NCBI GenBank assembly: GCA_965197645.1
Contig: OZ240219.1
Coordinates: 1,760,001-1,824,000 of the forward strand
Origin: Dehalococcoidia bacterium
GTDB taxonomy: Bacteria > Chloroflexota > Dehalococcoidia > Plut-88900
Reading direction: 5' to 3'
Length of the DNA stretch: 64,000 bases
Shown here: one piece after another, positions 30,120-50,929 of the stretch
How the letters are laid out: each line of letters opens with the position of its first letter
Position numbering within the stretch: the first letter of the stretch is position 1
Notes under the pieces: generated by a model
The model's database searches: none
What the model was told of the DNA's origin: nothing
The model's input: only the letters and a program-made list of their open reading frames with translations
Made by a program: the position numbers and the translations under genes

Positions 30120-31118
30120 GTGCTGAAAGGAGTCGCTGTGGGAGAGATAAAGGTAGCTTACGACTTCCCCATATCCGACGAATACCTGGCCAGGCTGCAA
30201 GCCGTGTCCCCCGATGTTCGACTCGTCGACCTGATAGGCGCGTCCAGCGAGGCGGTGGACGCCGGACTCAAGAACGCGGAGGTCCTCTACACCGCCGAGC
30301 CTCCAACCGGACTCGTCGAGCGTGCTCCCAACCTGAAGTGGCTGCAGTATGTGTGGGACGGGATAGACCTGGGAGTAGGGCCGGACATACTGGAGTCGCC
30401 CATAGGGGTAACCAACGCTCGACAGCTGGGGGCTCTTTGCATCGCCGAGTGGGTCCTGATGGTCATGCTCATGTTCAGCAAGAAGGCGCTGGATTTCACG
30501 CAGGACTGGCGGGACAAGGACTGGCGCAAGTCTCACGGGGACTTCTACTTCCTTTGGGAGCTCAAGGGCAAGACGGTGGGGGTCGTGGGGCTGGGCGCGA
30601 TAGGAGACGACGTGGCTCGCCTCTCCAAGGCCTTCGGCATGCGGGTACTGGCTACGCGGCGGTCGGCTACCAAGAGGCAGACCTCGGTGGGGAACGTAGA
30701 CCAGCTGTACCCGGCTTCGGAGCTGGACGAGGTGCTCAAGCAGAGCGATTTCGTGGTCGTGTGTGTCCCGCTGACCAAGGAGACGGAAAAGCTCATCGGC
30801 GAAAGAGAGCTGGGGCTGATGAGAAAGGACGCCTATATAATCAACATCGCCCGTGGCCAGATTATCGACGAGCCGGTGTTGGCCAAGGCTCTTCGGGAAG
30901 GCTGGATAGCCGGGGCAGCGCTGGACGTGTTTGAGGTCGAACCCCTCTCATCAGACAGTGAGCTGTACGACCTGCCCAACGTCATCGGCGCCCATCACAT
31001 AACCGGGGACGTGGACGTGTACGGCGATCGTATAGCTGATCTGTTCGCCCGGAATCTTGAGAGGTACGTCAAAGGCGAGGACTTCATCAACCTGGTAGAC
31101 AAGGAGCTGGGATACTAG
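30120..31118 (+). CDS. D-2-hydroxyacid dehydrogenase
   Basis: GLGAIG, NIARG, ALDVFEVEPL motifs. Confidence 0.9.
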   Translation: MLKGVAVGEIKVAYDFPISDEYLARLQAVSPDVRLVDLIGASSEAVDAGLKNAEVLYTAEPPTGLVERAPNLKWLQYVWDGIDLGVGPDILESPIGVTNARQLGALCIAEWVLMVMLMFSKKALDFTQDWRDKDWRKSHGDFYFLWELKGKTVGVVGLGAIGDDVARLSKAFGMRVLATRRSATKRQTSVGNVDQLYPASELDEVLKQSDFVVVCVPLTKETEKLIGERELGLMRKDAYIINIARGQIIDEPVLAKALREGWIAGAALDVFEVEPLSSDSELYDLPNVIGAHHITGDVDVYGDRIADLFARNLERYVKGEDFINLVDKELGY

Positions 31119-31157
31119 CACGAACATCGGACACGATGTCCCGGTGAGGAGGACAAT

Positions 31158-31343
31158 ATGCCCAACGTAACTATAGAGATGTATCCCGGTCGGACCAAGG
31201 CCCAGAAGGCGGAGCTGGCCCGGGTAATCACCGACGCCATGGCCAGCATCGCCAAGACTGACCCGGACGCCGTGCAGATAATCTTCCGAGAGATAACGAC
31301 GGAGGACTGGTCCTTCGGAGGCACCTTGGCGGCGGACAGGTAG
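31158..31343 (+). CDS. 4-oxalocrotonate tautomerase family protein
   Basis: Met-Pro start, GRTKAQKAEL, WSFGG; 61 aa; RBS AGGAGG. Confidence 0.9.
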   Translation: MPNVTIEMYPGRTKAQKAELARVITDAMASIAKTDPDAVQIIFREITTEDWSFGGTLAADR

Positions 31344-31394
31344 CCTCGTTTCACTGATGCCGGGTGGGGTTCGCACGTCGCCTCACAGGTCTGT

Positions 31395-33128
31395 TTACTG
31401 GTCTCTTGCAGAAGGATATGGGACAGAGGGCATCTTACCTCGGCGTGCTATACTCGATGGGCCACCCGTTACCGGGGCCGCTAGCTCAATTTGGAAGAGC
31501 AACTGACTCTTAATCAGTAGGTTCAGGGTTCGAGTCCCTGGCGGCCCACCATCGGGTAAAGTAGATAGAACAGACCCGTTCAGGGCCACGTTTTCGGCGG
31601 CTCTCCCAGGTATCGAGCTGTCGTCTGGCATAGGGACTGTGTATCTGAGCAGGGCGTCGCCGGGCACGACGACGATCTCCTTGATAAAGGACTGGATGAA
31701 GGCCCTGCGCTCGGTCAGTTCGCTCTCCTTCAGGAAGTCCTTCATGTCCTTGGCGTAGGCCGCGATGGTGTTCACGTCGTCGAGGACCTTCCGGCGCTGG
31801 GCCAGGACCGCCCTCGCCTGCTCAGCGAAATACTCCAGACGCTCCTGCCGCTCTCGGTGCTCCCTGATGCGGTCGGAGGCGTCGGCCATAACGGCGTCGG
31901 ATGTCTCTATGAAGTGCCAGATGCGGCCCAGCTTCCGCTTCACCTCTTCAAGCTCATCCTCAATGGTCTCCAGCCTCTTGCGCTGCTCTCGGGTCACACC
32001 GTCCATCTCCTCGGCCACCCCCTTGACCAGATCTCGGATGTTGCCCTCAGTGAGAATGTTGGAGCGAATCTTGTTGACCACCAGCTCCTCGAAGCGGCGG
32101 GCGTTGAGCGTGGGAGTCTCGCAGGCGTCCCTGCCGAGCTTGATGTTCGACTGGCAGACGTAGTAGGAGTACTTGCCGCTCTGGGCGAACCGGCCGATGA
32201 GCGGCGTGTTGCACGTCTTGCACTTGGCGAGGCCGCTGAGCAGGTAGGAGCTTCCGACTCTTCGCGGGTGGCTGAACTTGGGTGCGCGGGAGCCCAGATG
32301 CTTCCCGACGCGCTGCAACTGCGCCCTGGTGATGATGGCGGGAAACGCCTTCTCCACCCGCACCGGGTCGGCGTTGTCCTTGGCGTTCGCGCCCCAGACC
32401 AGTGTGCCCGTGTACGCCTCGTTGGTGAGGATGTTGTGGACGCTGGTCCTGGCCCAGAGCTTACCCCTGGGACTGGCGATGCCCTCGTTGTTGAGGGTGC
32501 GGATGATTTCGAGCGTCCCGTTTCCGGCCTCCGCCATGTCGTACATGCGCTTGACGGTGGGAGCCACATCGGGGTCGATCTCCAGGGTGGGCCTCTTTTT
32601 GGGACCGTCCTGCACCATGACCCGGTTGTAGCCGTAAGGGGCGTGGCTGGAAATCCAGAAGCCTCTCGACGCGGCTTCCCGCATCCCCCGCGTAACCTCC
32701 TGGGCAAGATTCTCGCTGTAGAATTCGTCCACGCTCTCGATGATGGCCTCCATGAGCTTGCCCGTCGGTGTGTCGTCGGCGTGCTCGGTGATGGAGACGA
32801 CGCGGACGCCCTTACGCCTGAGCATGGACTTGAAGGCGACGGCGTGCTCGCGCTTGCGGGTGAAGCGGCTGAACTTCCAGACAAGGATTTCCTTGAAGGG
32901 GGCCGTGGTCCTGCTGGCCTCGTCGATCATCTTGCGGAACTGCGGGCGGTCGGCGATGCGGCCGCTCTCGGCCTCGTCCACGAACTCTCCGACGACCATG
33001 TAGCCGTTCTTGCGGGCGTGGTCTCGGAGCGCCCTGAGCTGTGCGGAAACGGACAGGTCCACGTCCTGGCGGTCGCTGGAGACTCTGGCATAGAGGGCCA
33101 CTGGTGTGCAGTCGTGTCGTTCAGCCAT
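31395..33128 (-). CDS. Large serine recombinase (integrase); C-terminal ~51 codons read antisense through tRNA-Lys
   Basis: MAERHDCTPVALYARVSSDRQ (catalytic Ser), SRFTR, recombinase domain YTG, zinc ribbon LLSGLAKCKTC..YYVC, coiled coil; RBS GGAGG before ATG 33128. Confidence 0.92.
   Translation of the reverse strand: MAERHDCTPVALYARVSSDRQDVDLSVSAQLRALRDHARKNGYMVVGEFVDEAESGRIADRPQFRKMIDEASRTTAPFKEILVWKFSRFTRKREHAVAFKSMLRRKGVRVVSITEHADDTPTGKLMEAIIESVDEFYSENLAQEVTRGMREAASRGFWISSHAPYGYNRVMVQDGPKKRPTLEIDPDVAPTVKRMYDMAEAGNGTLEIIRTLNNEGIASPRGKLWARTSVHNILTNEAYTGTLVWGANAKDNADPVRVEKAFPAIITRAQLQRVGKHLGSRAPKFSHPRRVGSSYLLSGLAKCKTCNTPLIGRFAQSGKYSYYVCQSNIKLGRDACETPTLNARRFEELVVNKIRSNILTEGNIRDLVKGVAEEMDGVTREQRKRLETIEDELEEVKRKLGRIWHFIETSDAVMADASDRIREHRERQERLEYFAEQARAVLAQRRKVLDDVNTIAAYAKDMKDFLKESELTERRAFIQSFIKEIVVVPGDALLRYTVPMPDDSSIPGRAAENVALNGSVLSTLPDGGPPGTRTLNLLIKSQLLFQIELAAPVTGGPSSIARRGKMPSVPYPSARDQ
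31475..31551 (+). tRNA. tRNA-Lys (CTT)
   Basis: GGGCCGC/GCGGCCC acceptor stem, ACTGA-CTCTTAA-TCAGT anticodon arm, GTTCGAG T-loop, encoded CCA. Confidence 0.95.
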
Positions 33129-33205
33129 TCGTCTACCCTCCTTCTCTACGTCCTGTCCGGTCCGTCCATCCCTCGGCCCGGCGCCCGCCCAAAGCCAGGG
33201 GCGGC

Positions 33206-34042
33206 TCACACGCCGCAGTGACCCTCGCACTCGTTCCCGAACCCGTCCGCCTGCCCTCCGGCTCCCAAGACCGCCTCGTCGAGGTCGACCGCCTCGGCCA
33301 AGGGCATGCGAAGCATGTGCAGGTATGGGGTCTTGTCCAAGGCGAGCCCTTCTCGCAGGTTTGCGTCGATCTCCACCGCCTCGGCGAACAGCCCCGGCCA
33401 CCGGCGCTTCGCCTCCACCCAACGCTGGCGTGACTGGAAGGGGCAGGCGACGCAGGCCGAGCGTTCCAGGGGCCTGTCGTAGCGGGCCGCCCACCAGTCG
33501 GCGCAGTCGCTGCGGGACATGCCCGCCTCGATGAGCGGGTAGCGGTTCGTCATCCAACGGTCCCGGGAATCTTTCATGCGCATGGCCTCGTCGGTGGAGA
33601 TGCCGAGCCACAGCTCGACCGTCGTTCCGGCGGGGACACGCTGGCGGGGCCGCAAACCCAGCAGCTCCCGTATCCTGCGGCGGATGGGTCTGATCTTGTA
33701 GTTGGTGGTGCACTGGCGTCTGCCGATGCCGTCGCCCTGCCCGTCGCGCCCCTTGAGGTAGACGGGAATGTCCACGTAGCTGCGTGAGCCGGAGTGGTTG
33801 GTGAGGGCCTTCACGTCCTCGCGGAGGCTGCGCCCGTTGTCCACGACGTGCAGGGGGAAACGGAGCTGCCCGGCAAGCCATTCGATGTGCTCGTAGACGC
33901 TGGGCGGCTCCCAATGGGTGTCGGCGAAGATGGCGCAGTCCGGCACCCAGTCGAACGCGCCCTCGCTTGCCATGAGCGCCATGACGGAGGACTGGACGCC
34001 TCCGCCGAGGCTGAGGACGGTCAGGGTCGGATGCGAATTCAT
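33206..34042 (-). CDS. PAPS-reductase-like / adenine nucleotide alpha-hydrolase superfamily protein (phage type)
   Basis: SLGGGVQSS PP-loop, FADT, RQCT..YKI, GIS.DE..R, SACVACPF, Cys-rich ECEGHCGV tail. Confidence 0.7.
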   Translation of the reverse strand: MNSHPTLTVLSLGGGVQSSVMALMASEGAFDWVPDCAIFADTHWEPPSVYEHIEWLAGQLRFPLHVVDNGRSLREDVKALTNHSGSRSYVDIPVYLKGRDGQGDGIGRRQCTTNYKIRPIRRRIRELLGLRPRQRVPAGTTVELWLGISTDEAMRMKDSRDRWMTNRYPLIEAGMSRSDCADWWAARYDRPLERSACVACPFQSRQRWVEAKRRWPGLFAEAVEIDANLREGLALDKTPYLHMLRMPLAEAVDLDEAVLGAGGQADGFGNECEGHCGV

Positions 34043-34254
34043 CAGCTCGCCTCCTCGCCGCCGTCGGGCGCAGCCTCGGGCAAGGGCGACGCGTCCCCGC
34101 GCTTGCGCATGTAGGAGCGGATGGCGACCTTTGCCCAGATGCGCAGGCCCTTGCGGAACATCCTCCGCTGCTCCGGGGTATAGGCCGCCGGGCCGTCCTC
34201 TCCTGACTGTTGTGTTCGTTCTGTGCGGTGGTATCTTTCATGTTGCGTAGTCAC
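34042..34254 (-). CDS. Small hypothetical protein of the element
   Basis: 70-aa ORF whose stop overlaps the next ATG; YTPEQRRMFRKGLRIWAKVAIRSY helix. Confidence 0.55.
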   Translation of the reverse strand: MTTQHERYHRTERTQQSGEDGPAAYTPEQRRMFRKGLRIWAKVAIRSYMRKRGDASPLPEAAPDGGEEAS

Positions 34255-34400
34255 AGCGGCGTCTGCTGGGCCGCTGGCCTCTCATTACGGGATTGCGGCT
34301 GGGCCGCCGGCGCCGACGGAACGGGCGGGCGCCGGCGGCATCCAGCCGTCTCAGACCCCGCCGTGCCGCCGTTGCGCCTGCGCCCGGCGGGGCCGCTCGT

Positions 34401-34730
34401 CTAGCTGTGCTCCTTGAAGAAGCTCATCTGGAAGCTCTCGGTCACGAGGATCGCCATGCCTCCGGGCATCCGAGCTGCGAAGCGGAAGAGGGCGTGCATG
34501 GCCCAGCCGCGGGGCTCGACGCCGTTGCGCCACCGGTGGACCAGCTTGGGGTCCACGCCGATGGCCCTGGCGAAGGCGGCCCACGTGAGGCCGCTGACCT
34601 CGTGCAGCCGTTCGAGGCGCTTGGGGAAGTCCTCGGCCAGCACGGCGGCCTGGAGGGCCAGGTCCTGTTCCTCGTCGAAGGTCTGTTCCGTGATCCCGTC
34701 GAAACGGGACGAATCGTTATGGTTCGTCAT
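34401..34730 (-). CDS. XRE-like helix-turn-helix protein
   Basis: DFPKRLERLHEVSGLTWAAFARAIGVDPKLVHRWRNG. Confidence 0.8.
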   Translation of the reverse strand: MTNHNDSSRFDGITEQTFDEEQDLALQAAVLAEDFPKRLERLHEVSGLTWAAFARAIGVDPKLVHRWRNGVEPRGWAMHALFRFAARMPGGMAILVTESFQMSFFKEHS

Positions 34731-34896
34731 CTCTATCCTCCATAGTGAAAAGTTGGTCGAAGTCGTCGAAACCCAGGGCCCTGAGCATCCGGCGGCGAAT
34801 GCGACCGGAGGGTGTGCGCCCCGCGTTGACCAGCATCGAGATGTAGCCGGGGCTGACCCCGACCTCCCTGGCGAGCCAGTTCTGGGAGCTGTTCAG
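34717..34896 (-). pseudogene. 5'-truncated XRE HTH gene
   Basis: LNSSQNWLAREVGVSPGYISMLVNAGRTPSGRIRRRMLRALG...; no start codon, in-frame TAG at 34900-34902. Confidence 0.7.
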
Positions 34897-35119
34897 CCCC
34901 TACACCGGCTGGCGCTGGTACATCACCGAGTGGGACCCGGAGACGGGAACGTGCTTCGGCCTCGTCGAGGGGTTCGAGGTGGAGCTGGGCTACTTTGACC
35001 TGACCGAGTTGGCTGAGGTAACCGTGTTCGGCAGCGTCCCCGCCGTGGAGCGCGACCTGTACTGGGAGCCGCAGACCCTCGGCGAGATCAGGAGGCAGTC
35101 GTCGGGGATTGCGGCCTAG
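34889..35119 (+). pseudogene. 5'-truncated DUF2958-like gene
   Basis: LFSPYTGWRWYITEWDPETGTCFGLVEGFEVELGYFDLTEL...VERDLYWEPQTL; no start codon in frame after TAG at 34844. Confidence 0.7.
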
Positions 35120-35170
35120 CGAACGGCCCACATAAACGCAGTCGAAGAAGAATCAAGGAAAGGAGACACC

Positions 35171-35653
35171 ATGCCTGACGAGAATGGAACGGAAGCAACC
35201 CGCTCGGATGCGCCGAGCACGGACGGGAGTCTCTTCGGCGAAGCGGCGGACGACACGGGAGCCGCTGTTGCCGACGAGCAGGACGCCAACAAGGAGCCCG
35301 ACCGCGAGGAACAAGCTCCTGATGACGCAGAGGAGCAAGCCGGTCAGCCGGAGGATCTGAAAGTCGTCGTGTCCGTCAAGGACGGCAAGGCCACCATCGG
35401 GGTGCAACAGCCCTCGTCCGACCCGCACATCGAGTCCTTCGACGACGCTGACCTCCCCGGCCTGACACAGGAGGTGCCGGCGGTGGTCGACCGGGCGAGA
35501 GCCAAATGGGAGGAAACACCCAAGCATCCGGCCCACGAGAGACCCGCTCCCACTCCCAGGGGCCGGAACCGGCGTGGGCAAGCTGCGGCTCAGGCCGAGA
35601 CGGCCGAGGGAGGGGCAGAGCAGCAGCAACCCGAGACGCTGAGGCTGTTCTAG
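35171..35653 (+). CDS. Hypothetical acidic protein of the element
   Basis: RBS AGGAG, ATG; low-complexity acidic N-terminus, beta-rich core DLKVVVSVKDGKATIGVQ, ends TLRLF. Confidence 0.65.
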   Translation: MPDENGTEATRSDAPSTDGSLFGEAADDTGAAVADEQDANKEPDREEQAPDDAEEQAGQPEDLKVVVSVKDGKATIGVQQPSSDPHIESFDDADLPGLTQEVPAVVDRARAKWEETPKHPAHERPAPTPRGRNRRGQAAAQAETAEGGAEQQQPETLRLF

Positions 35654-35823
35654 GGGCCGAGTCGAGATGGCTCGGACACATCATCGCAGTCGGCGCGGGA
35701 CGCTGACCGCAGTAGCAGGGGGAGGTCGTCGCAACGGCGACGGCTTTCCCCTGCCCAGCCATGTATGTGGCCTTTTTGCATTTCGGCCGCTGTGGTCGCG
35801 GGCCGCTTCCCCGGCAAGCCGGC

Positions 35824-36069
35824 TCAGCCGGTGAACAGGTGACCGAGGCCCAGGTCGTCTGCCAGGTCCTGAAGCGCCTTCAAATGCCGATAGTTGGGCC
35901 GCACTCCTCGCTGCCACCAACGCCTTACGGTGACGGGATCGACGCCGAGACGACGGGCGATCTCCACCCATGACAGGCCGGATGCGTGCTTGAACCACAC
36001 CAGCCGTTGTGGGAAGTCGTCTGGGAAGTCGCGGGGCTTTCTCCTGTACTGCGTGCGCTGTCGAGGCAT
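35824..36069 (-). CDS. XRE-like helix-turn-helix protein (paralog of 34401-34730)
   Basis: FPDDFPQRLVWFKHASGLSWVEIARRLGVDPVTVRRW; ATG at 36069. Confidence 0.8.
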   Translation of the reverse strand: MPRQRTQYRRKPRDFPDDFPQRLVWFKHASGLSWVEIARRLGVDPVTVRRWWQRGVRPNYRHLKALQDLADDLGLGHLFTG

Positions 36070-36259
36070 AGCGCGAATCCTTGTCACGGACGACCACAAT
36101 CCCCTCCGCGACGGGGCGTCCAAGCCGTCAAGCAAACCCGCTCTCTAGCGGCCTCGAAGCTCCGACGTATCCGGCACGGGAGAGGCCGCCGCCCTCCCCC
36201 GGCGATCCGTACGCGGGCTTTTCTTGTTGCCAGTAAGACCGAGCGATTGACTTCCCGCT

Positions 36260-39200
36260 CTATCCGCTCGGACCGCTAACGGTGAACTCCAGTCTGTTGG
36301 ACAGCATCCTGCCGTCCTCCGTGCAGATGGCTCCATCGGCGGTGCAGTCCGTGGTTGCCGGGAGGACCACGGTAACGTCCCCGGTGGAGGTGGGCTTTAC
36401 CGTGATGCGCCAGTAGATGTTGCTGGGCTTGTCCGTTCTCTGCGCAGTCTCGACCGTGCCTCCCGTCACATTGAAGGCGTGGGTCTTCAGGGTCACGTAG
36501 CTCAGGCCGAACTCCTCGCTGAACTCAATGTCAAAGGTGAACTCTGACGATCCGTCATGGGTCGCCGGGGCCGCGACCGTCAGGCTGACGGTGAGCGGAA
36601 CTGGCGCCGCAGCTACGGCCACTGTCGCTTCGCTGGTCAGGGTCTCCTCGTTATCGGCGTCGTCGGTGAAGGACACCTTCACCTTGATGGTCTTGCCCTG
36701 CTCGCTGGCGGTCAGGGTGTAAGTCGAGCCGGTGGCCCCGTTGATGTCCGCCTCCCCGGCGATCCACTGGTATCGGTAAGCAACGTTGGTCAGCGCGTCC
36801 TCGTCGGCAATGTCCGCCGTATCTGCCGTCAGGGTCTCCCTCACCTGTGGCGTCCCGCTGATGGTCGGCAAGCCCGTGGCATCACGGTTGGGCGCCGCAG
36901 CTACGGCCACTGTCGCTTCGCTGGTCAGGGTCTCCTCGTTATCGGCGTCGTCGGTGAAGGACACCTTCACCTTGATGGTCTTGCCCTGCTCGCTGGCAGT
37001 CAGGGTGTAGGTGGAACCGGTGGCCCCGTTGATGTCCGACCCCCCGGCGCTCCACTGGTATCGGTAAGCAACGTTGGTCAGCCCGTCCTCGTCGGCAATG
37101 TCCGCCGTATCCGCCGTCAGGGTCTCCCTCACCTGTGGCGTCCCGCTGATGGTCGGCAAGCCCGTGGCATCACGGTTGGACGCTGCAGCTACGGACACTG
37201 TCGCTTCGCTGGTCAGAGTCTCCTCGTTATCGGCGTCGTCGGTGAAGGACACCTTCACCTTGATGGTCTTGCCCTGCTCGCTGGCGGTCAGGGTGTAGGT
37301 GGAACCGGTGGCCCCGTTGATGTCCGTACCACCGGCGCTCCACTGGTATCGGTAAGCAACGTTGGTCAGCCCGTCCCCGTCGGCAATGTCCGCCGTATCC
37401 GCCGTCAGGGTCTCCCTCACCTGTGGCGTCCCGCTGATGGTCGGCAAGCCCGTGGCATCACGGTTGGACGCTGCAGCTACGGACACTGTCGCTTCGCTGG
37501 TCAGAGTCTCCTCGTTATCGGCGTCGTCGGTGAAGGACACCTTCACCTTGATGGTCTTGCCCTGCTCGCTGGCGGTCAGGGTGTAGGTGGAACCGGTGGC
37601 CCCGTTGATGTCCGTACCACCGGCGCTCCACTGGTATCGGTAAGCAACGTTGGTCAGCCCGTCCCCGTCGGCAATGTCCGCCGTATCCGCCGTCAGGGTC
37701 TCCCTCACCTGTGGCGTCCCGCTGATGGTCGGCAAGCCCGTGGCATTGCCGTCGGCTACGGATGGCTGCACAAGAGGCAAATCTATTTCATACTTCGGCA
37801 ATTGTGTCGCAGTGAGGACCCTTTGGTCGTAAATGCCTTGCAGGTATGCCTTGAGGTTGTAGTTGTACGAACTGATGCCGTAGAACAGGTTGCCGATGGC
37901 GTTGTCTGCGTTCCATGCGTTCCACAGCGCTGCAAGCTCTTGTGCTGTCTTCGGCTGCTCGGCCAGCAGGTCTTGTGATTCGCTGATGTCGTTCTCAAGG
38001 TCGAATAGCTGGGGGCTTTCACCTGTGTCCAGGATGGGTTTGGGTTTTCCGTGACTGCGCCTTTCTTTGATCAGTTTGTCATCGCCGGAGCGGACTGCGT
38101 AGCCTCCGCTTCTCCAGTCGCGCCAGAACAATGCCTGATGCGGGGGACCTTCTTCTGCGCCTCGGAGAAATGGGTCAAGGTCGACTCCGTCGATCGGCCT
38201 GTCGGGGTCTTCGGAGGTGGCGTTTGCCAGCTTCAGGACGGTAGAGGCTATGTCCAGGCTGATGACCATAGGATCGTATGTGTGCCCTTCGGGCCACATG
38301 GCTGGCCATGAAGCGACAAAAGGTACGTGTATTCCGCCTTCGTAGAAACTGTCTTTCGCGCCGCGGAGCGGGTTGTTGTCGGCGTGGTCTCCGTCCGGAG
38401 GCTTGCCGGACCGGCCGCCGTTGTCGCTGAGGAAGAAGATGACGGTGTTGTCGGCGAGGGAGGATTCGTCCAGGGCGTCCAGCATTCTGCCGATGTTCTG
38501 GTCGAGCGAGTCCACCATTGCGAGGTAGATGCGCCGATCCCGGTCTTCAACTGTGGAGTACTTGTCGATGAGTTCCTGCGGGGCCTGCAGTGGAGTGTGT
38601 GGCGCGTTGTAGGCCAGGTAGAGGAAAAAGGGTTCGTCCGTTGGTTTCTCGATAAAGTCTATTGCTCTGTCGGTGAGGACGTCCGTCAAGTATCCGTCGA
38701 ACTCTCCGTAACCGGTGTTCTCGATGAGCGGGAGTTGCATGTGGTCGTGCGGGGACGTCGTATTTGAGTGCCAATAGCTGTGCCCACCGCCCAGGAAGCC
38801 GAAGAAGTAGTCGAATCCCCGGTTAAGCGGGTTGAATCTCCGTGCGGCTCCAAGCTGCCACTTGCCCACGATACCAGTCCGATAGCCTTCGTCTTGAAGT
38901 CTTTCGGGAAAGAGCGTTTCCTCTAGTGGAAGCCCATGGTTATCGTCAAAGGGAGCGTACGCCAGGTTGCCTTCCAAACCGAACCTTGACGGGTAACGAC
39001 CGGTCAGAAGGCCAGCTCGGGACGGAGTGCAAGTTGAGTAGGGCACATATCCATTCGTGAATGTAATGCCGCGGCTGGCCAGGCGGTCTATGTTTGTCGT
39101 CTGAATCTGCGTGGCGCCGTTGTAGCTGACGTCGTTGTACCCCAGGTCGTCGACGAGAATGACAATCACGTTCGGCTTGGCCACCACGGTCGCGGTCGCC

Positions 39201-41152
39201 TCGCTGGTGCGGGTCTCCTGGTTGTTGGCGTCGTCGTCGAAGGACACCTTGACCTTGATTGCGTTGCCCACATCTGCGGCGACCAGCGTGTACGTGGATG
39301 CTGTCTGGCCCGCTATGTCGGTGTCACCGTTGGTGCCGCTGCGAATCCACTGGTAGCTGTAGGAAACGTTGGTCAGTCCGTCGTCGTCGGCGATGTCCGA
39401 CGTGGACACGGTCAGCGTCTGGTCGACCACGGCAGGTCCGATGACGGTAGGAAGAGCGGTGCCTTGACTGCTTGCCTGGGCCGCCACCACTTCGTCAGTA
39501 GCCGCGCTGGTGAGGGTCTCCTGGTTGTCAGCGTCATCGGTGAAGCTCACCTTCACCTTGATGGTCTTGCCCACGTCGGCGTCGGACAGCTTGTAGGTCG
39601 AGTCCGTCGCGTCCTCGATGTCCGCGTCGGCGTTCCCGTCGTTCCTAATCCACTGGTAACCGTAGGAAACATTGGTCAACCCGTCCCCGTCGGTAATGGC
39701 CGAGGTGTCCGCCGTCAGCGTCTGTTCCGCCTCGGGCGTCCCACTGATGGTGGGCAGGCCGGCGGGCGCAGAGTTCTCAGACTCGGTGTTCTGCTCCGAG
39801 ATGCCTCCGCTAGGCGTGCCCGCTGCCTCGGTAGATGCCGGACCGTAGCCCATGACGTTGCTGGCTATGACCCGAACGGCGTATGCCACCCCTCCAGTCA
39901 ATCCGGTGATAGTGTCCGTAGTCCCGGTCACCGTGGCCTCGGAAACGTCCGCTGCGGTGTCCCAGCTGTCTGCCGCCTCCTTCCACTGCACCTTGTATCC
40001 AGTGATGGCGGAACCACCGTTGGATGAGGGGGCCTGCCAAGACGCATCAAGTTCCTGGATCTGGTCTCCTGTTGCCACGGCCAGGCTCAAAGGCTGTGTG
40101 GGTACGGTGGCGAGAACTGCTGTTGTCGCCACGCTGGTCAGGGACTCGTCGTTATCGGTGTCGTCGGCGAATGAGACCCGAACCTTGATGGTCTTGCCCA
40201 CATCGGTGTCTGACAGCTTGTAGGTGGAGTCCGCTGCGTCCTCAATGTCCGCGTCGGCGTTCCCGTCATTCGTGATCCACTGGTATCGGTAAGTAACGTT
40301 GCTCAGCCCGTCCCCGTCGGCAATGTCCGCCGTATCCGCCGTCAGGGTCTCCCTCACCTGGGGCGTCCCGCTGATGGTCGGCAAGCCCGTGGCATCACGG
40401 TTGGGCGCCGCAGCTACCTCCACCGTCGCTTCGCTGGTCAGGGTCTCCTCGTTATCGGCGTCGTCGGTGAAGGACACCTTCACCTTGATGGTCTTGCCCT
40501 GCTCGCTGGTAGTCAGGGTGTAGGTGGAACCGGTGGCCCCGTTGATGTCCGCCTCCCCGGCGCTCCACTGGTATCGGTAAGCAACGTTGGTCAGCCCGTC
40601 CTCGTCGGCAATGTCCGCCGTATCCGCCGTCAGGGTCTCCCTCACTTGGGGCGTCCCGTTGATGGTCGGCAGACCGGTGGCATCACTGTTGGGAGTGGGT
40701 TTCACCAGCGCCGACGTTGGGACGATGCTCACAGGAATCGTCTGCCCGTCCTCCCAATCGACGTCCACATCCGTCCATTTGAAGTTACTGTTCTCGGAAC
40801 TTCCCTTTGGAAATTCCAGGGTGAGGTCGCCAACTTGCAGCGTATAGCCCTCAGCTCCAGCAACCCCCGCTGCAAATGATAGGCGAAGGTCGCGGCCCGG
40901 GATGTGGGACCAGAGCGACTTAATCTGAAGACCCCCGGTGCCCCCAACGTTGGAGAAGAGGTCGGCGCTGGCTGCGCCGATGGAAACGTCGGTGTACTTC
41001 ACCACGAACATGTCTGCCGACCAAACCACTGTATTCTCATCTTGCGTCTGGCTCTGTGCCTGGACAACCCAGGGTATGAGCACCAGGGCGGCGATGGCCG
41101 CCAGTCCGAGGAGAATCAGTGGGAGCGTCGCAAGACGCCGCGAGATGGTCAT
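36260..41152 (-). CDS. Secreted 1630-aa modular protein: Ig/cadherin-like repeats, FN3-like domain and arylsulfatase domain
   Basis: Signal peptide; about 8 copies of ATGLPTISGTPQVRETLTADT..YQW..GKTIKVKVSFTDD; WQAPSSNGGSAITGYKVQW (FN3); PNVIVILVDDLG, CTPSRAGLLTG, GKWQLG, SDNG (sulfatase). Confidence 0.9.
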   Translation of the reverse strand: MTISRRLATLPLILLGLAAIAALVLIPWVVQAQSQTQDENTVVWSADMFVVKYTDVSIGAASADLFSNVGGTGGLQIKSLWSHIPGRDLRLSFAAGVAGAEGYTLQVGDLTLEFPKGSSENSNFKWTDVDVDWEDGQTIPVSIVPTSALVKPTPNSDATGLPTINGTPQVRETLTADTADIADEDGLTNVAYRYQWSAGEADINGATGSTYTLTTSEQGKTIKVKVSFTDDADNEETLTSEATVEVAAAPNRDATGLPTISGTPQVRETLTADTADIADGDGLSNVTYRYQWITNDGNADADIEDAADSTYKLSDTDVGKTIKVRVSFADDTDNDESLTSVATTAVLATVPTQPLSLAVATGDQIQELDASWQAPSSNGGSAITGYKVQWKEAADSWDTAADVSEATVTGTTDTITGLTGGVAYAVRVIASNVMGYGPASTEAAGTPSGGISEQNTESENSAPAGLPTISGTPEAEQTLTADTSAITDGDGLTNVSYGYQWIRNDGNADADIEDATDSTYKLSDADVGKTIKVKVSFTDDADNQETLTSAATDEVVAAQASSQGTALPTVIGPAVVDQTLTVSTSDIADDDGLTNVSYSYQWIRSGTNGDTDIAGQTASTYTLVAADVGNAIKVKVSFDDDANNQETRTSEATATVVAKPNVIVILVDDLGYNDVSYNGATQIQTTNIDRLASRGITFTNGYVPYSTCTPSRAGLLTGRYPSRFGLEGNLAYAPFDDNHGLPLEETLFPERLQDEGYRTGIVGKWQLGAARRFNPLNRGFDYFFGFLGGGHSYWHSNTTSPHDHMQLPLIENTGYGEFDGYLTDVLTDRAIDFIEKPTDEPFFLYLAYNAPHTPLQAPQELIDKYSTVEDRDRRIYLAMVDSLDQNIGRMLDALDESSLADNTVIFFLSDNGGRSGKPPDGDHADNNPLRGAKDSFYEGGIHVPFVASWPAMWPEGHTYDPMVISLDIASTVLKLANATSEDPDRPIDGVDLDPFLRGAEEGPPHQALFWRDWRSGGYAVRSGDDKLIKERRSHGKPKPILDTGESPQLFDLENDISESQDLLAEQPKTAQELAALWNAWNADNAIGNLFYGISSYNYNLKAYLQGIYDQRVLTATQLPKYEIDLPLVQPSVADGNATGLPTISGTPQVRETLTADTADIADGDGLTNVAYRYQWSAGGTDINGATGSTYTLTASEQGKTIKVKVSFTDDADNEETLTSEATVSVAAASNRDATGLPTISGTPQVRETLTADTADIADGDGLTNVAYRYQWSAGGTDINGATGSTYTLTASEQGKTIKVKVSFTDDADNEETLTSEATVSVAAASNRDATGLPTISGTPQVRETLTADTADIADEDGLTNVAYRYQWSAGGSDINGATGSTYTLTASEQGKTIKVKVSFTDDADNEETLTSEATVAVAAAPNRDATGLPTISGTPQVRETLTADTADIADEDALTNVAYRYQWIAGEADINGATGSTYTLTASEQGKTIKVKVSFTDDADNEETLTSEATVAVAAAPVPLTVSLTVAAPATHDGSSEFTFDIEFSEEFGLSYVTLKTHAFNVTGGTVETAQRTDKPSNIYWRITVKPTSTGDVTVVLPATTDCTADGAICTEDGRMLSNRLEFTVSGPSG
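36604..37746 (-). repeat. Four tandem near-identical 288-bp (96-aa) repeats
   Basis: Same text recurs with a period of 288 (shadow ORFs at 36786, 37074, 37362, 37650); further near-identical sequence at ~40280-40684. Confidence 0.92.
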
Positions 41153-41403
41153 GACTTACCTCCGGCTAGCCAAGGGGTGAACATTTGAGCTAGGCCGCCA
41201 TAGGCGGCGAAGCCCGAGGCGAGCGGCGCAGCGACCGCAGGGGCCGCCGTTCCGTCCGCCGTCTCAGGTGCATGGACCGATCTGTCGAGCGCCATGTGAA
41301 TGCCTCCCTCGCACAGGCGGGATTCAGCGGGATGGTAGCGGCTCTAGAAGGCTTTGGTAAGTGCCTAATCACACTTCTTGGTGAGGTAATTTGGACGACA
41401 CTT

Positions 41404-41487
41404 TGTTAGCTCTTGGAGAGTGTGTTTCTGCAACTTTTCACTCTTTCACCGACCGTGTGTTTGCTCTATTGGAGGGTGTTTCTGCAA
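41404..41487 (+). repeat. Imperfect ~30-bp direct repeat pair
   Basis: TGTTAGCTCTTGGAGAGTGTGTTTCTGCAA (41404-41433) vs TGTTTGCTCTATTGGAGGGTGTTTCTGCAA (41458-41487). Confidence 0.65.
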
Positions 41488-41940
41488 TACGAGGAACAAG
41501 GCCACGGCTTCGCAAGCGTGCGGGCGTACGCCGAGCGGCTGGGTGGACGCCTCATCGTCGAGCCCACGGGATCGGTCGGGGGCGCCAGCGTGACCGGAGC
41601 GACCCGCTACCTTCAGACGATGGCCGGGATAGACCAAGTCCTGGGCATGATGAAGAGCGCGGCGGCGGGCGAGGGGCGTCTGCCGACAGAGGTGGTGAAG
41701 CGGGTCTTCGACAGGATACGGAGCGGGGCGAGAGCGAAGGACGTCCACCTGACCCAGAGGGAGAAGGAGATATTCGTGTCGTTCTGCCGGGGCATGTCGT
41801 ACGTTGCGATTGCGCAGGCAAGGGAAGTCAAGGTGGTCACCATCCGAAACGCCATCTACACCATTCAGGTGAAGCTGGGCGTCGACTCGAAGCAGGAGAT
41901 CGTGGTGTGGGCCTCGCAGAACGGGCTCCTGGATGACTAG
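41488..41940 (+). pseudogene. Fused remnant of a NarX-like kinase C-terminus and a NarL/LuxR response regulator C-terminus
   Basis: YEEQGHGFASVRAYAERLGGRLIVE (HATPase G2 box) joined in frame to GATRYLQ...LTQREKEI...TIRNAIYTIQVKLGVDSKQEIVVWA (LuxR HTH). Confidence 0.7.
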
Positions 41941-42209
41941 CGACAGAGACTGCTTCGCCGACTCGCAGCCGGTGCGCACTGCGGCGAAGCAGTTCCGGCG
42001 CCGGCTGGGGAGGACGCCGACCATCTCGCCTACACCCTCACCGAGCCCCGCTTCGGCTGCCGGATGGGAAGGGGGAGAGGCCGTGTCCTGAGAGGGATTG
42101 AGGAAGCGCCAACCACGAGGCCCCGTGAAGTGTCATTGTAGTCAGCTAACACTCAGCCCCACCGCCCATGTGTACCTGAGTTTTTGGTGTCGATTGGATA
42201 ACTGATAAG

Positions 42210-43460
<1,251 letters not shown>

Positions 43461-43504
43461 AAGATATCAAATAGGGTTGAGGATATCAATCTATGATAGA
43501 TCGA

Positions 43505-44383
43505 TTATGCGCCTCGCAGCGCCTTCTGCAACGTGGCGCCGATCTCCGCTGGGCTGGGTACTATATGGGCCCCCGCGGCCCTTAGAGTCTCCACCTTGGC
43601 CTGAGCCGTAGCCGCCGCGCCGGTGATAATGGCGCCCGCATGCCCCATCCGACGGCCGGGAGGCGCCGTCGCTCCCCCGATGAAGGCGGCTATAGGCTTG
43701 GTCATGTTAGCTTCGATGTACCCTGCCGCTTCCTGCTCCCGAGTGCCCCCAATCTCGCCGATCATGACCACTGCCTCGGTGTCTTCGTCCTCTTCAAACA
43801 TGGACAAGACCTTCACGAAATCGCTGCCGATGATGGGGTCGCCACCGATCCCCAGGCAGGAAGACTGACCGATGCCCAGCTCAGTAAGCTGGGCCACCGC
43901 CTCGTAGGTCAGGGTGCCGCTTCGGGAGACGATACCCACCTTCCCCGCCTTGTGTATATCACCGGGCATGATACCAACCTTCGCCTTGCTGCCCGGCGAG
44001 ATCACCCCCGGGCAGTTCGGGCCGATGAGTATCGATTCGTGTTCGCCGAGATAGTGGGCCACGGAGACCATATCCTTTACCGGAATACCTTCGGTGATAC
44101 ATACGATCAGTGGCACACCCGTTTCGGCGGACTCAAGGATGGCATCGGCAGCGAAGGGCGCCGGAACGAATATCAGGGCCACGTTGGCACGGGTCTCATC
44201 CACAGCCTGCCGTACCGAGTTGTACACAGGCACCCCCTCCACGTCCGCTCCACCTTTGCCAGGTGTCACGCCGGCGACCAGGTTGGTCCCGTAGTCTCGA
44301 CATCGCATGGCGTGGAAGCCGCCGTCCCTGCCGGTGATGCCTTGAACAAGCAATCGAGTATTTTCGTCTACCAGGATACTCAT
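43505..44383 (-). CDS. sucD: Succinyl-CoA synthetase alpha subunit
   Basis: [35 protein letters not shown]. Confidence 0.96.
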
Positions 44384-50431: not shown

Positions 50432-50786
50432 AACCGCCCTCCCTTCAAGTTCAACCTTCCTGACCTCAGAGTGAATCTCGATTTAGGGTGGGATTGCTGA
50501 GGGATGTTCCCTAATTCTATCATTGGTAGCAAGCGTCCCAACTCCGTGGCCTCCGGCCCTGCGATGGCTGAGACGGGACCAGCTTCGTCATCGAGGGAAA
50601 GAGACCCTCCGCATTTCCTCGATGGGGGTTTAGGGAGAAGATGTATACTCTCCCCACCCCCAGGCACTGATCCGATGTGGGGTACTCCCGTGAGTGCCCG
50701 ACGTCGAGGGCAGTCAAGTTTCCGTCCGCACTAGGTCGGTTTACACACCCGCCCCGGGGGGCTGGTTTTAGAAAAGGCCCTCCGAT

Positions 50787-50929
50787 GAGCCTGTCTCAGA
50801 ACCCTGCTTTGAGGGAGTCCAGAGGGAAATTTCCCTCTGGCAGGGGGCCTGGGGAATGTTCCCCCAGCTACAAAACCTTCCGAGGGCGGGCGGTTGGGGC
50901 TAAGACGTCCGTACTTTTGAGACAAGCTC
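50787..50929 (-). repeat. MITE-like element with ~16-bp imperfect terminal inverted repeats, copy B
   Basis: GAGCCTGTCTCAGAAC ... CTTTTGAGACAAGCTC; the interior is homologous to 25950-26044. Confidence 0.7.

Follow-up and report, generated by a model that had tools for sequence, protein, structure and literature searches.

Where does an integrase gene end when its reading frame meets no stop codon at the edge of the mobile element and runs on into the chromosome? The question is raised by a 64,000-nucleotide stretch of the genome of a Dehalococcoidia bacterium (GenBank assembly GCA_965197645.1, contig OZ240219.1, positions 1,760,001 to 1,824,000; the whole stretch is called the window below, and positions are counted from its first letter), where the gene of a large serine recombinase crosses into a tRNA-Lys gene on the opposite strand. 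We consider it quite probable that one end of an integrated Dehalococcoidia genomic island lies in the window, and that the recombinase gene of this island runs across its own attachment site.

The list of open reading frames in the window gives one open frame at 31395..34241 (-); its recombinase portion begins with the methionine at 33128 (MAERHDCTPVALYARVSSDRQ) and encodes 577 amino acids before a TAA stop at 31395-31397 (-). Residues 1-526 (MAERH...STLPD; 31552..33128, minus strand) form the body of the protein, the part carried by the element. Pfam searches place a Resolvase domain (PF00239, E 5.5e-33), which is the catalytic domain of the resolvase type, at residues 10-156, followed by Recombinase (PF07508, residues 186-278, E 1.3e-20) and Zn_ribbon_recom (PF13408, residues 296-355, E 1.7e-11). 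The motif YARVSSDRQ is invariant across 20 aligned homologs, and we take the serine within it to be the nucleophile of the window recombinase. The tRNA-Lys gene (anticodon CTT; 31475..31551, plus strand), the presumed target of integration, was found intact by ARAGORN; it is the sole such gene in the genome, and its 3' end is identical to that of relatives without the integrase. On the minus strand the sequence reads ...TTA CCC GAT GGT GGG CCG..., which translates as L P D G G P. Codon D526 has its last base (31551) paired with A76 of the tRNA, so that the frame enters the tRNA at TGGTGG. This exact entry point had been claimed in an earlier, sequence-only reading of the locus, and the list of open frames, ARAGORN and a direct reading of the sequence all confirm it. 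The run-on tail of the integrated copy (residues 527-577 and the stop at 31395-31397; 31395..31550, minus strand) consists of antisense tRNA and of 78 nucleotides (nt) located 5' of the tRNA. Its length, 51 codons, also stands as first described, except that the 51 are counted from the junction (about 25 within tRNA-Lys and 26 located 5' of it) and not from the far side of the tRNA. A simple sigma-70 scan of 31100-33400 returned no promoter-like site, which leaves the tRNA promoter named in that reading putative, and a terminator scan at the locus returned one weak terminator-like site that did not rise above shuffled sequence.

The same behavior recurs throughout the family. The genome that contains the window (3.21 Mb, 61% G+C) has six recombinase paralogs that are 66-76% identical: three enter intact tRNAs (Lys; Ile, with the stop inside the tRNA; and Ala), two go past the same core to sequence of other kinds, and one ends at a stop of its own. 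Scanning one genome per species yielded 79 related loci (L008-L086), all in Dehalococcoidia or Chloroflexota metagenome-assembled genomes, and 86 junctions were classified from the six own-genome loci (L001-L006) and 75 of these 79; no junction was obtained by the motif used at L007, L014, L042, L046 and L074. An intact antisense tRNA follows at 30 of the 86 junctions (Ile-GAT 10, Ala-GGC 6, Ala-TGC 4, Ala-CGC 1, Met 3, Val-CAC 2, Val-TAC 1, Val-GAC 1, Lys-CTT 1 and Lys-TTT 1) and tRNA fragments at two. Elsewhere the frame meets a recurrent block, here called the far arm (7/86), a far arm interrupted by an inverted-end repeat element (4/86), the 3' end of a convergent recombinase gene (10/86) or other sequence (9/86), with one junction left unclassified. 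A mirror-image type, in which the core is read as GGCCCACCA, accounts for 15 junctions, and sister groups that have their own stop before the core account for 8. The sequence-only reading had proposed a collection of homologs as its own check, and the missing stop turns out to be systematic: no stop stands ahead of the shared core at 77 of the 86 junctions, and 30 enter intact tRNAs. In a wider sample, a homolog at E<=1e-40 was found in 40 of 151 genomes of the class, and all 12 homologs fetched from small complete Dehalococcoidia genomes (40-49% identical) enter antisense Ala, Val, Asn, Ile or Met tRNAs. A viral contig collection scanned with the integrase yielded no relatives.

Comparison of the junctions places the boundary between element and host within the last six bases of the tRNA, the shared core CCACCA (tRNA positions 71-76; 31546..31551 on the plus strand, TGGTGG on the integrase strand). 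In 29 of the 30 tRNA-adjacent homologs, exactly 14 nt separate a conserved pair of Val-Leu codons from the tRNA 3' end; in the same proportion (29/30) the adjacent tRNAs share one register and have acceptor stems paired at 7 of 7 positions. Between these codons and TGGTGG, each recombinase clade has 14-15 nt of a sequence specific to it, and the motif GTTCT stands 15 nt ahead of TGGTGG in 47 of 47 junctions measured. Beyond TGGTGG(G/A) the sequence varies with the neighbor, and what the different contexts have in common ends there. Recombinases that are 99.0-99.6% identical in protein sequence are located at Ala-GGC, Val-CAC, Ala-TGC and Met-CAT, tRNAs whose 3' ends have only CCACCA in common. 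The boundary therefore lies within CCACCA, because exchange deeper in the tRNA could not yield four kinds of well-paired tRNAs. CCACCA ends exactly 10 of the 50 tRNA genes in the window's own genome (3 Ala, 3 Val, Ile, Lys-CTT, one Met and Tyr), and nine of the ten target species fall in this set; the tenth, Lys-TTT, has the CCACCA ending in the genome in which it serves as target.

The arrangement of short motifs around the core resembles an attachment site for a serine integrase. Sites that look like the attachment site of the free element (attP) read GTTC, 16 nt, TGGTGG, 20 nt, GAAC (17/17), and on the tRNA side a GAAC in the T-loop starts 14 nt after TGGTGG in 29 of 30 cases. This spacing fits inverted half-sites that are longer in attP than in the chromosomal site (attB), as in serine integrases, and these would be the sites of binding. 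In the window, the predicted integrase-proximal half-site, P', lies in the last conserved codons (..GSVLSTLPD) and comprises GTTCT, 15 nt and the core (31552..31572, minus strand). The symmetry center of the attP-like sites falls between the fifth and sixth bases (G5/G6) of TGGTGG, and the crossover dinucleotide predicted from it is probably C71-C72 (31546-31547). In the own genome, no repeat of at least 16 nt was found for the 3' ends of tRNA-Lys, tRNA-Ala or tRNA-Ile; a core of only 6-7 nt without long repeats is consistent with a 2-bp crossover. A third recurrent arm, (A/T)(C/T)TCATAGCTAAGAC..GGGGACTCG, follows the CCACCA of tRNA-Met at own-genome positions 2528056-2528090 and precedes far arms in two other genomes (L135 and L149). 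Possibly a further type of element, using the same core, ends in this arm.

The far arm is where the native end of the integrase appears to lie. The closest relative of the window recombinase (94-96% identical) agrees with it through TGGTGGGCC and from there goes on into a far arm as GGPGRTELRTFRWVVRI-stop, with no tRNA. A search of 401 genomes of the class for the pattern at the start of the far arm gave 29 occurrences, spread over 20 genomes, against none for the reversed control; a metagenome contig collection scanned with the pattern gave one match only. The genome search and the copies from earlier loci together provide 33 distinct far-arm instances. In 31 of these the frame continuous with the integrase ends at the same codon, as TAG (16), TGA (11) or TAA (4), after a conserved tail of 17 residues, GGPxxTELRTFRWEVx(L/I). 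For the eight codons not covered by the search pattern, the column entropy averages 0.74, 0.62 and 1.33 bits at the first, second and third codon positions, and the excess of variation at the third position is a signature of translated sequence. Mirror-image-type arms have a conserved end of their own on the opposite strand, GPP(N/D)(W/L)xKSRTFx(L/V)(R/G)FxLx(L/V)-stop, in 7 of 11 instances. An AlphaFold model of the native-tail form shows long helices at residues 343-468, a candidate for the coiled-coil insert that large serine recombinases have in the zinc-ribbon domain, in a prediction of low confidence (mean pLDDT 60, pTM 0.34); the native tail scores below 50 in it and is the basis for no inference here.

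What precedes the far arms is in keeping with their being one side of an attachment site. Upstream of the 33 instances there is a recombinase 3' end in 7, a mirror-image-type arm in 11 and unrelated flank in 15, the last of which would be expected of the distal junctions of integrated elements. In another genome, a far arm and a recombinase abutting tRNA-Ala-TGC stand at the two ends of a 38.6-kb stretch, in the expected order and orientation, and both the convergent recombinase pairs and the arm-core-arm sites would be the outcome of tandem elements of the two types. From these comparisons we conclude that the recombinase gene most likely spans attP, with its last 17 codons and stop on the far arm, and that integration would detach them. 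The earlier proposal that attP lies inside the 3' end of the integrase gene, and that integration rewrites the C-terminus, is thus supported by comparative boundary mapping and by the conserved far-arm tail. The companion statement that the gene has no stop of its own holds for the integrated copy only; the gene itself would have one, 17 codons past the crossover on the P arm. Within the own genome, a segment of about 1.5 kb (2991670-2993168; 3092-4590 of L002) that follows paralog c2 is inserted into a far arm. Its edges are 20-nt inverted repeats (GAATTCAGTCTGTCTCAGAAG-like), the same insertion point is found in three other genomes, and one of its open reading frames has a weak DDE transposase match that falls under the family cut-off (E 9.5e-4).

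A mechanism can be proposed on this basis. The enzymes of this family would target the outermost 3' end of tRNA genes whose last bases are CCACCA, and strand exchange would take place within those six bases, probably at C71-C72; with the new ACCA supplied by the element, the tRNA would stay intact. On the free circle, the integrase frame would cross the site into the far (P) arm and finish there with the conserved 17-residue end and a stop. Integration would separate this tail from the gene, and the chromosomal copy would then read into whatever follows. In the window, the frame would thereby run for 51 codons, through antisense tRNA-Lys and 78 nt that lie upstream of the tRNA. The alignments make evident the junction and its fixed register, the boundary in CCACCA and the coding-type conservation of the far-arm tail; the tail may also matter for activity, and its exchange may regulate integration or excision.

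Several observations weigh against this model or against its application to the window copy. The loci were chosen by likeness to the query and the copies are kin, which makes the counts descriptive. The host-side half-site beyond CCACCA has no clear conservation, which is unusual for a serine integrase. Seven far-arm junctions are contiguous with an integrase in chromosomes, and the model does not account for the persistence of such attP-like junctions; for the one belonging to the closest relative, a tandem array was considered and set aside, with no tRNA or integrase found within 21 kb downstream. In the window itself, no far arm, core-plus-arm or attR-like site was found in 33100-43400, and with no far arm nearby the model is only presumptive for this copy. 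A clean empty-site comparison failed among 10 relatives, in which the genes downstream of tRNA-Lys are not syntenic, and the contigs of four public sequencing runs held no trustworthy excision joint, circle or empty site for the window element.

The window copy thus has an intact integrase, and it may no longer be able to excise; it is possibly a relic. The tRNA-Lys loci of the 10 relatives include one full integrase, six 3' remnants (two of them weak matches) and three without either. At another locus (L107, G011:C7:2086530-2098530), two same-strand tRNA-Lys-CTT genes 5.2 kb apart are each followed by an integrase 3'-end remnant. Public runs were found to the number of 24, all of them available as contigs and not as reads; the four examined include RNA libraries, whose contigs cover parts of the integrase as well as the junction. 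A long joint from 35089 to 43991 was considered as an excision product and rejected as untrustworthy, its sides being just 22 letters long. Across 31334-36000 the contigs of the four runs are 100 to 1000 times deeper than over the chromosomal flanks, a figure that says no more than that the family is present in very many copies in those communities; the label on several of the RNA runs is sponge metagenome.

Three other explanations were weighed, the first of which gives the run-on tail a significance of its own. A run of 51 codons without a stop is unremarkable: its probability is 0.20 from base composition and 0.37 when estimated empirically from random starts. What exceeds chance is the fixed junction, not the run-on length, because 29 of 30 cases share the 14-nt register. 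After the Val-Leu codons the run-on tail varies across homologs from 3 residues to more than 100 (8 to 107 codons by another count, with one case that has no stop in the stretch examined), and an in-frame antisense stop is present in 5 of the 10 CCACCA tRNAs of the own genome. The antisense-tRNA tail looks accidental, because its length varies with the tRNA and is at chance level here. That the tail is itself selected, which is the strong form of the switch suggested in the sequence-only reading, seems very unlikely to us, whether its residues are supposed to be needed or transcripts crossing the tRNA are supposed to control the element or the tRNA itself. The shared register of tRNA entry (29/30) might be read in favor of selection, and it follows from site-specific recombination alone. 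The tails at Ile, Val and Met tRNAs have 17-20 residues, near the native 17, and share with it a GGPxxTRT-like start, a likeness that follows from the far arm mimicking a tRNA end. An RNA-library contig spans 31533-31771, across the junction, but such contigs, which come from a 95%-like copy in a family of hundreds of copies, give no strand, start or transcription. Tail length is set only by the chance position of a stop in the tRNA, and one 99%-identical integrase acquires quite different tails at Ala, Val and Met, and both points weigh against selection.

A crossover in the T-loop, as proposed for the DsiB recombinase at ssrA, with the final 20-25 nt of the tRNA duplicated on the element, would place the exchange further inside the RNA gene than the model does. 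It is recommended by the direct repeats in the portions of the Dehalococcoides reports covered here, 20 bp at ssrA and 25 bp of tRNA-Ala (PMC3146451, PMC2764846), which for those relatives do suggest an exchange of this more internal kind, and by the mimicry of the T-loop and acceptor end in far arms. We regard it as very improbable: near-identical integrases stand at four tRNA species with differing, fully paired acceptor stems, which conservative exchange in the T-loop could not give; repeats of 16 nt or longer of the 3' ends of tRNA-Lys, tRNA-Ala and tRNA-Ile are absent from the own genome; and the sequence common to different contexts stops at TGGTGG(G/A). The far arm might instead be an independent repeat, such as a small mobile element, a small open reading frame or an RNA, that frequently comes to rest beside these genes, with the integrase having no defined stop. 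Far-arm blocks do occur without an adjoining integrase in 26 of 33 copies, an inverted-end repeat element is inserted into the block at 4 of the 86 junctions, and a small palindrome (CGAA..TTCG) was observed in the block by eye. Integrase-free copies are nevertheless what distal junctions should look like; the codon-type pattern and the fixed stop occur in exactly the frame continuous with the integrase; the block always starts at the same core, in an orientation and at a distance that fit a serine-integrase half-site; and the mirror-image type shows likewise on the other strand (7/11). We give this explanation little credence, and prefer a gene that would end on the other arm of its attachment site.

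Attachment sites inside integrase genes have parallels among other recombinases. The archaeal integrases of the SSV1 type, which are tyrosine recombinases of viruses and plasmids, have an int gene that spans attP, and a deep split inactivates this gene upon integration. The arrangement proposed here would be similar, with attP in the integrase coding region, a split on integration and an intact gene on the free element only; it differs in that the window recombinase has serine-recombinase domains only (by Pfam) and in that just the last 17 codons would be detached. In mycobacteriophages, Broussard and Hatfull are said to have described in 2013 an attP within the repressor gene, where integration by a tyrosine integrase reportedly removes a degradation tag. 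That integration-dependent immunity shares with the present case an attP in a coding region and a protein C-terminus altered by integration, and it exemplifies the sort of switch envisaged in the sequence-only reading. The gene concerned is the repressor there and the recombinase's own gene here, and any parallel in the behavior of the window protein is hypothetical.

The closest precedent is found within the same class of bacteria. The sequence-only reading knew of no characterized case for serine recombinases of this kind, and this has to be corrected in light of DsiB, the 540-residue serine recombinase of ssrA-specific islands in Dehalococcoides (McMurdie et al. 2011, BMC Genomics 12:287, PMC3146451, here and below as far as its accessible part goes). 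The 3' end of dsiB is described there as always overlapping attL, with a stop only beyond the island edge, even in ssrA or in a neighboring island, and the gene as possibly fully functional only on the circular element, being complete there or next to another island. Insertion was placed midway along the T-loop, with a 20-bp direct repeat, and a pseudo-tRNA was noted embedded in a 'mom' homolog of the module (PMC3146451). The window recombinase resembles DsiB, as portrayed in that part of the report, in being a large serine recombinase of the same class of bacteria, at an island end and on the strand opposite to the adjoining small RNA gene, and its gene likewise overlaps attL with no stop before the island edge. 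The DsiB module also carries a homolog of 'Mom' of about 270 amino acids, and the 278-aa PAPS-reductase-like gene of the window is possibly its counterpart. The two systems differ in their targets: from what is given there, DsiB uses tmRNA, with the 20-bp repeat in mid T-loop, and the window family uses tRNAs at the terminal CCACCA. Nor does that part of the report present a conserved far-arm tail for dsiB.

Kinship between the two is distant. The own-genome tmRNA gene, at 2680279, has no adjoining copy of the family, and the window recombinase is about 25% identical to the one that adjoins ssrA in two small Dehalococcoidia genomes and is presumably DsiB; neither ssrA integration with a 20-bp repeat nor close relationship to DsiB was found for the window. 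Domain and family searches detected no DsiA-like small second recombinase, RecF or ParB beside the window integrase, only the PAPS-reductase-like and helix-turn-helix (HTH) genes. Tandem pairs of large serine recombinase genes do occur in some related elements (L013, L041, L051 and L052, and the pairs L014/L008, L015/L012 and L024/L011), in which the upstream gene has its own stop (…STRQ*, …DGPPI*) and the downstream gene crosses the core; they recall the CcrA/CcrB or DsiA/DsiB pairs. Nearer relatives probably figure in an earlier account of Dehalococcoides islands at tRNA-Ala, tRNA-Val and tRNA-Lys (McMurdie et al. 2009, PLoS Genet 5:e1000714, PMC2764846), which in its accessible part describes a site-specific recombinase (e.g. 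DhcVS63) beside tRNA-Ala-1 with a 25-bp repeat. These tRNA-linked recombinases are likely to belong to the same subfamily as the window one, judging by the homologs of 40-49% identity, one of which lies at about 57.8 kb beside tRNA-Ala-GGC in a small Dehalococcoidia genome; the link to the named strains is inferential. That part of the 2009 account gives the tRNA islands and the repeat, with no description of the reading frame or its end. Beyond McMurdie 2009 and 2011, a literature search that left supplements and most subscription journals outside its scope retrieved no serine integrase whose last codons lie across attP. Nor did it retrieve a report of a boundary at the CCACCA tip, of the use of several tRNAs by one enzyme, or of a protein end encoded on the far arm, points on which the 2011 supplements may bear. 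The headline feature is therefore not new: the phenomenon is published for a distant relative (2011), and the tRNA link has been noted for closer ones.

The second recombinase of the window (42234..43460, plus strand) was also claimed to read through a tRNA, and it does, running antisense through tRNA-Ala (GGC; 43367..43442, minus strand by ARAGORN), which ends in CCACCA. This gene is a 5'-truncated relic by the open-frame list, Pfam and alignment, and the tRNA would be the target of a second, decayed element. Pfam finds no catalytic Resolvase domain in it; it matches only residues 134-562 of the first copy, at 70% identity, and the alignment of the two copies holds until about 10-15 nt ahead of TGGTGG.

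Just upstream of the intact integrase gene is the PAPS-reductase-like gene (33206..34042, minus strand; 278 aa; PF01507, E 2.6e-7; phrog_424, E 1.9e-41). A core-like site, GCCGAC TGGTGGGCG, lies inside it at around 33485-33500, in the codons for ADWWA. A paralog of this gene at own-genome positions 3193513-3194083 is cut exactly at its internal GCCGAC TGGTGGGC and joined to a far arm, a finding that agrees with the proposed attachment site, and elements seem to insert into one another's PAPS-reductase gene. The small element genes that follow span 34401..36135, mostly on the minus strand, as a group in which the element's far boundary is not defined: a 109-aa open reading frame (34401..34730, -) related by HTH families to an HTH protein (35824..36135, -), and a 160-aa frame from the open-frame list (35171..35653, +). 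Between the two recombinase copies, a secreted-looking sulfatase of 1630 amino acids is encoded at 36260-41152 (-). Many near-identical repeat modules, each about 95 amino acids long (Ig/fn3-like), flank it, and metagenome contigs show many joints between the repeats. The terminal-repeat motif of the 1.5-kb segment behind paralog c2 also occurs in inverted pairs, about 130-150 nt apart, in the window (50786-50801 and 50912-50929) and at about ten further places in the genome; these pairs resemble miniature forms derived from that insertion sequence. The 3' end of tRNA-Ser has exact copies of 19-24 nt away from tRNA genes at own-genome positions 1863650, 2067831, 3085173 and 3104032. Three of these four lie about 140 nt from the miniature repeats, and the four copies may have been left behind by another family of integrative elements.

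A bolder extension of the model can be offered only tentatively, and we think it less probable than its failure. There might be a family of CCACCA-tip integrases serving at least ten tRNA species, in which the last 17 residues act as a built-in sensor of state: the circle alone would make the complete enzyme, and the integrated, tail-swapped form would be altered in activity, stability or directionality. Mirror-image elements would behave likewise, with one 50-bp site holding the ends of two integrase genes on opposite strands.

Serine integrases are valued tools of genome engineering, and how they choose their direction is a live question. For the specialist, the interest of this family lies in its CCACCA-tip targeting and its split gene end, both of which are testable. 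The targeting is unusual, with near-identical enzymes at the tip of several tRNA genes that share only CCACCA and the T-loop. In practical terms, gene callers will report false integrase C-termini and tRNA-overlapping open reading frames throughout Dehalococcoidia genomes, and the family shows huge amplification in the sponge-type metagenomes where the window sequence occurs. The alignments also bear on the question left open in 2011 of where these integrase genes end, and we propose that they do so on the other arm of attP. If this is true, the complete protein would come only from the excised element, which would amount to a testable state-dependent control without a separate directionality factor.

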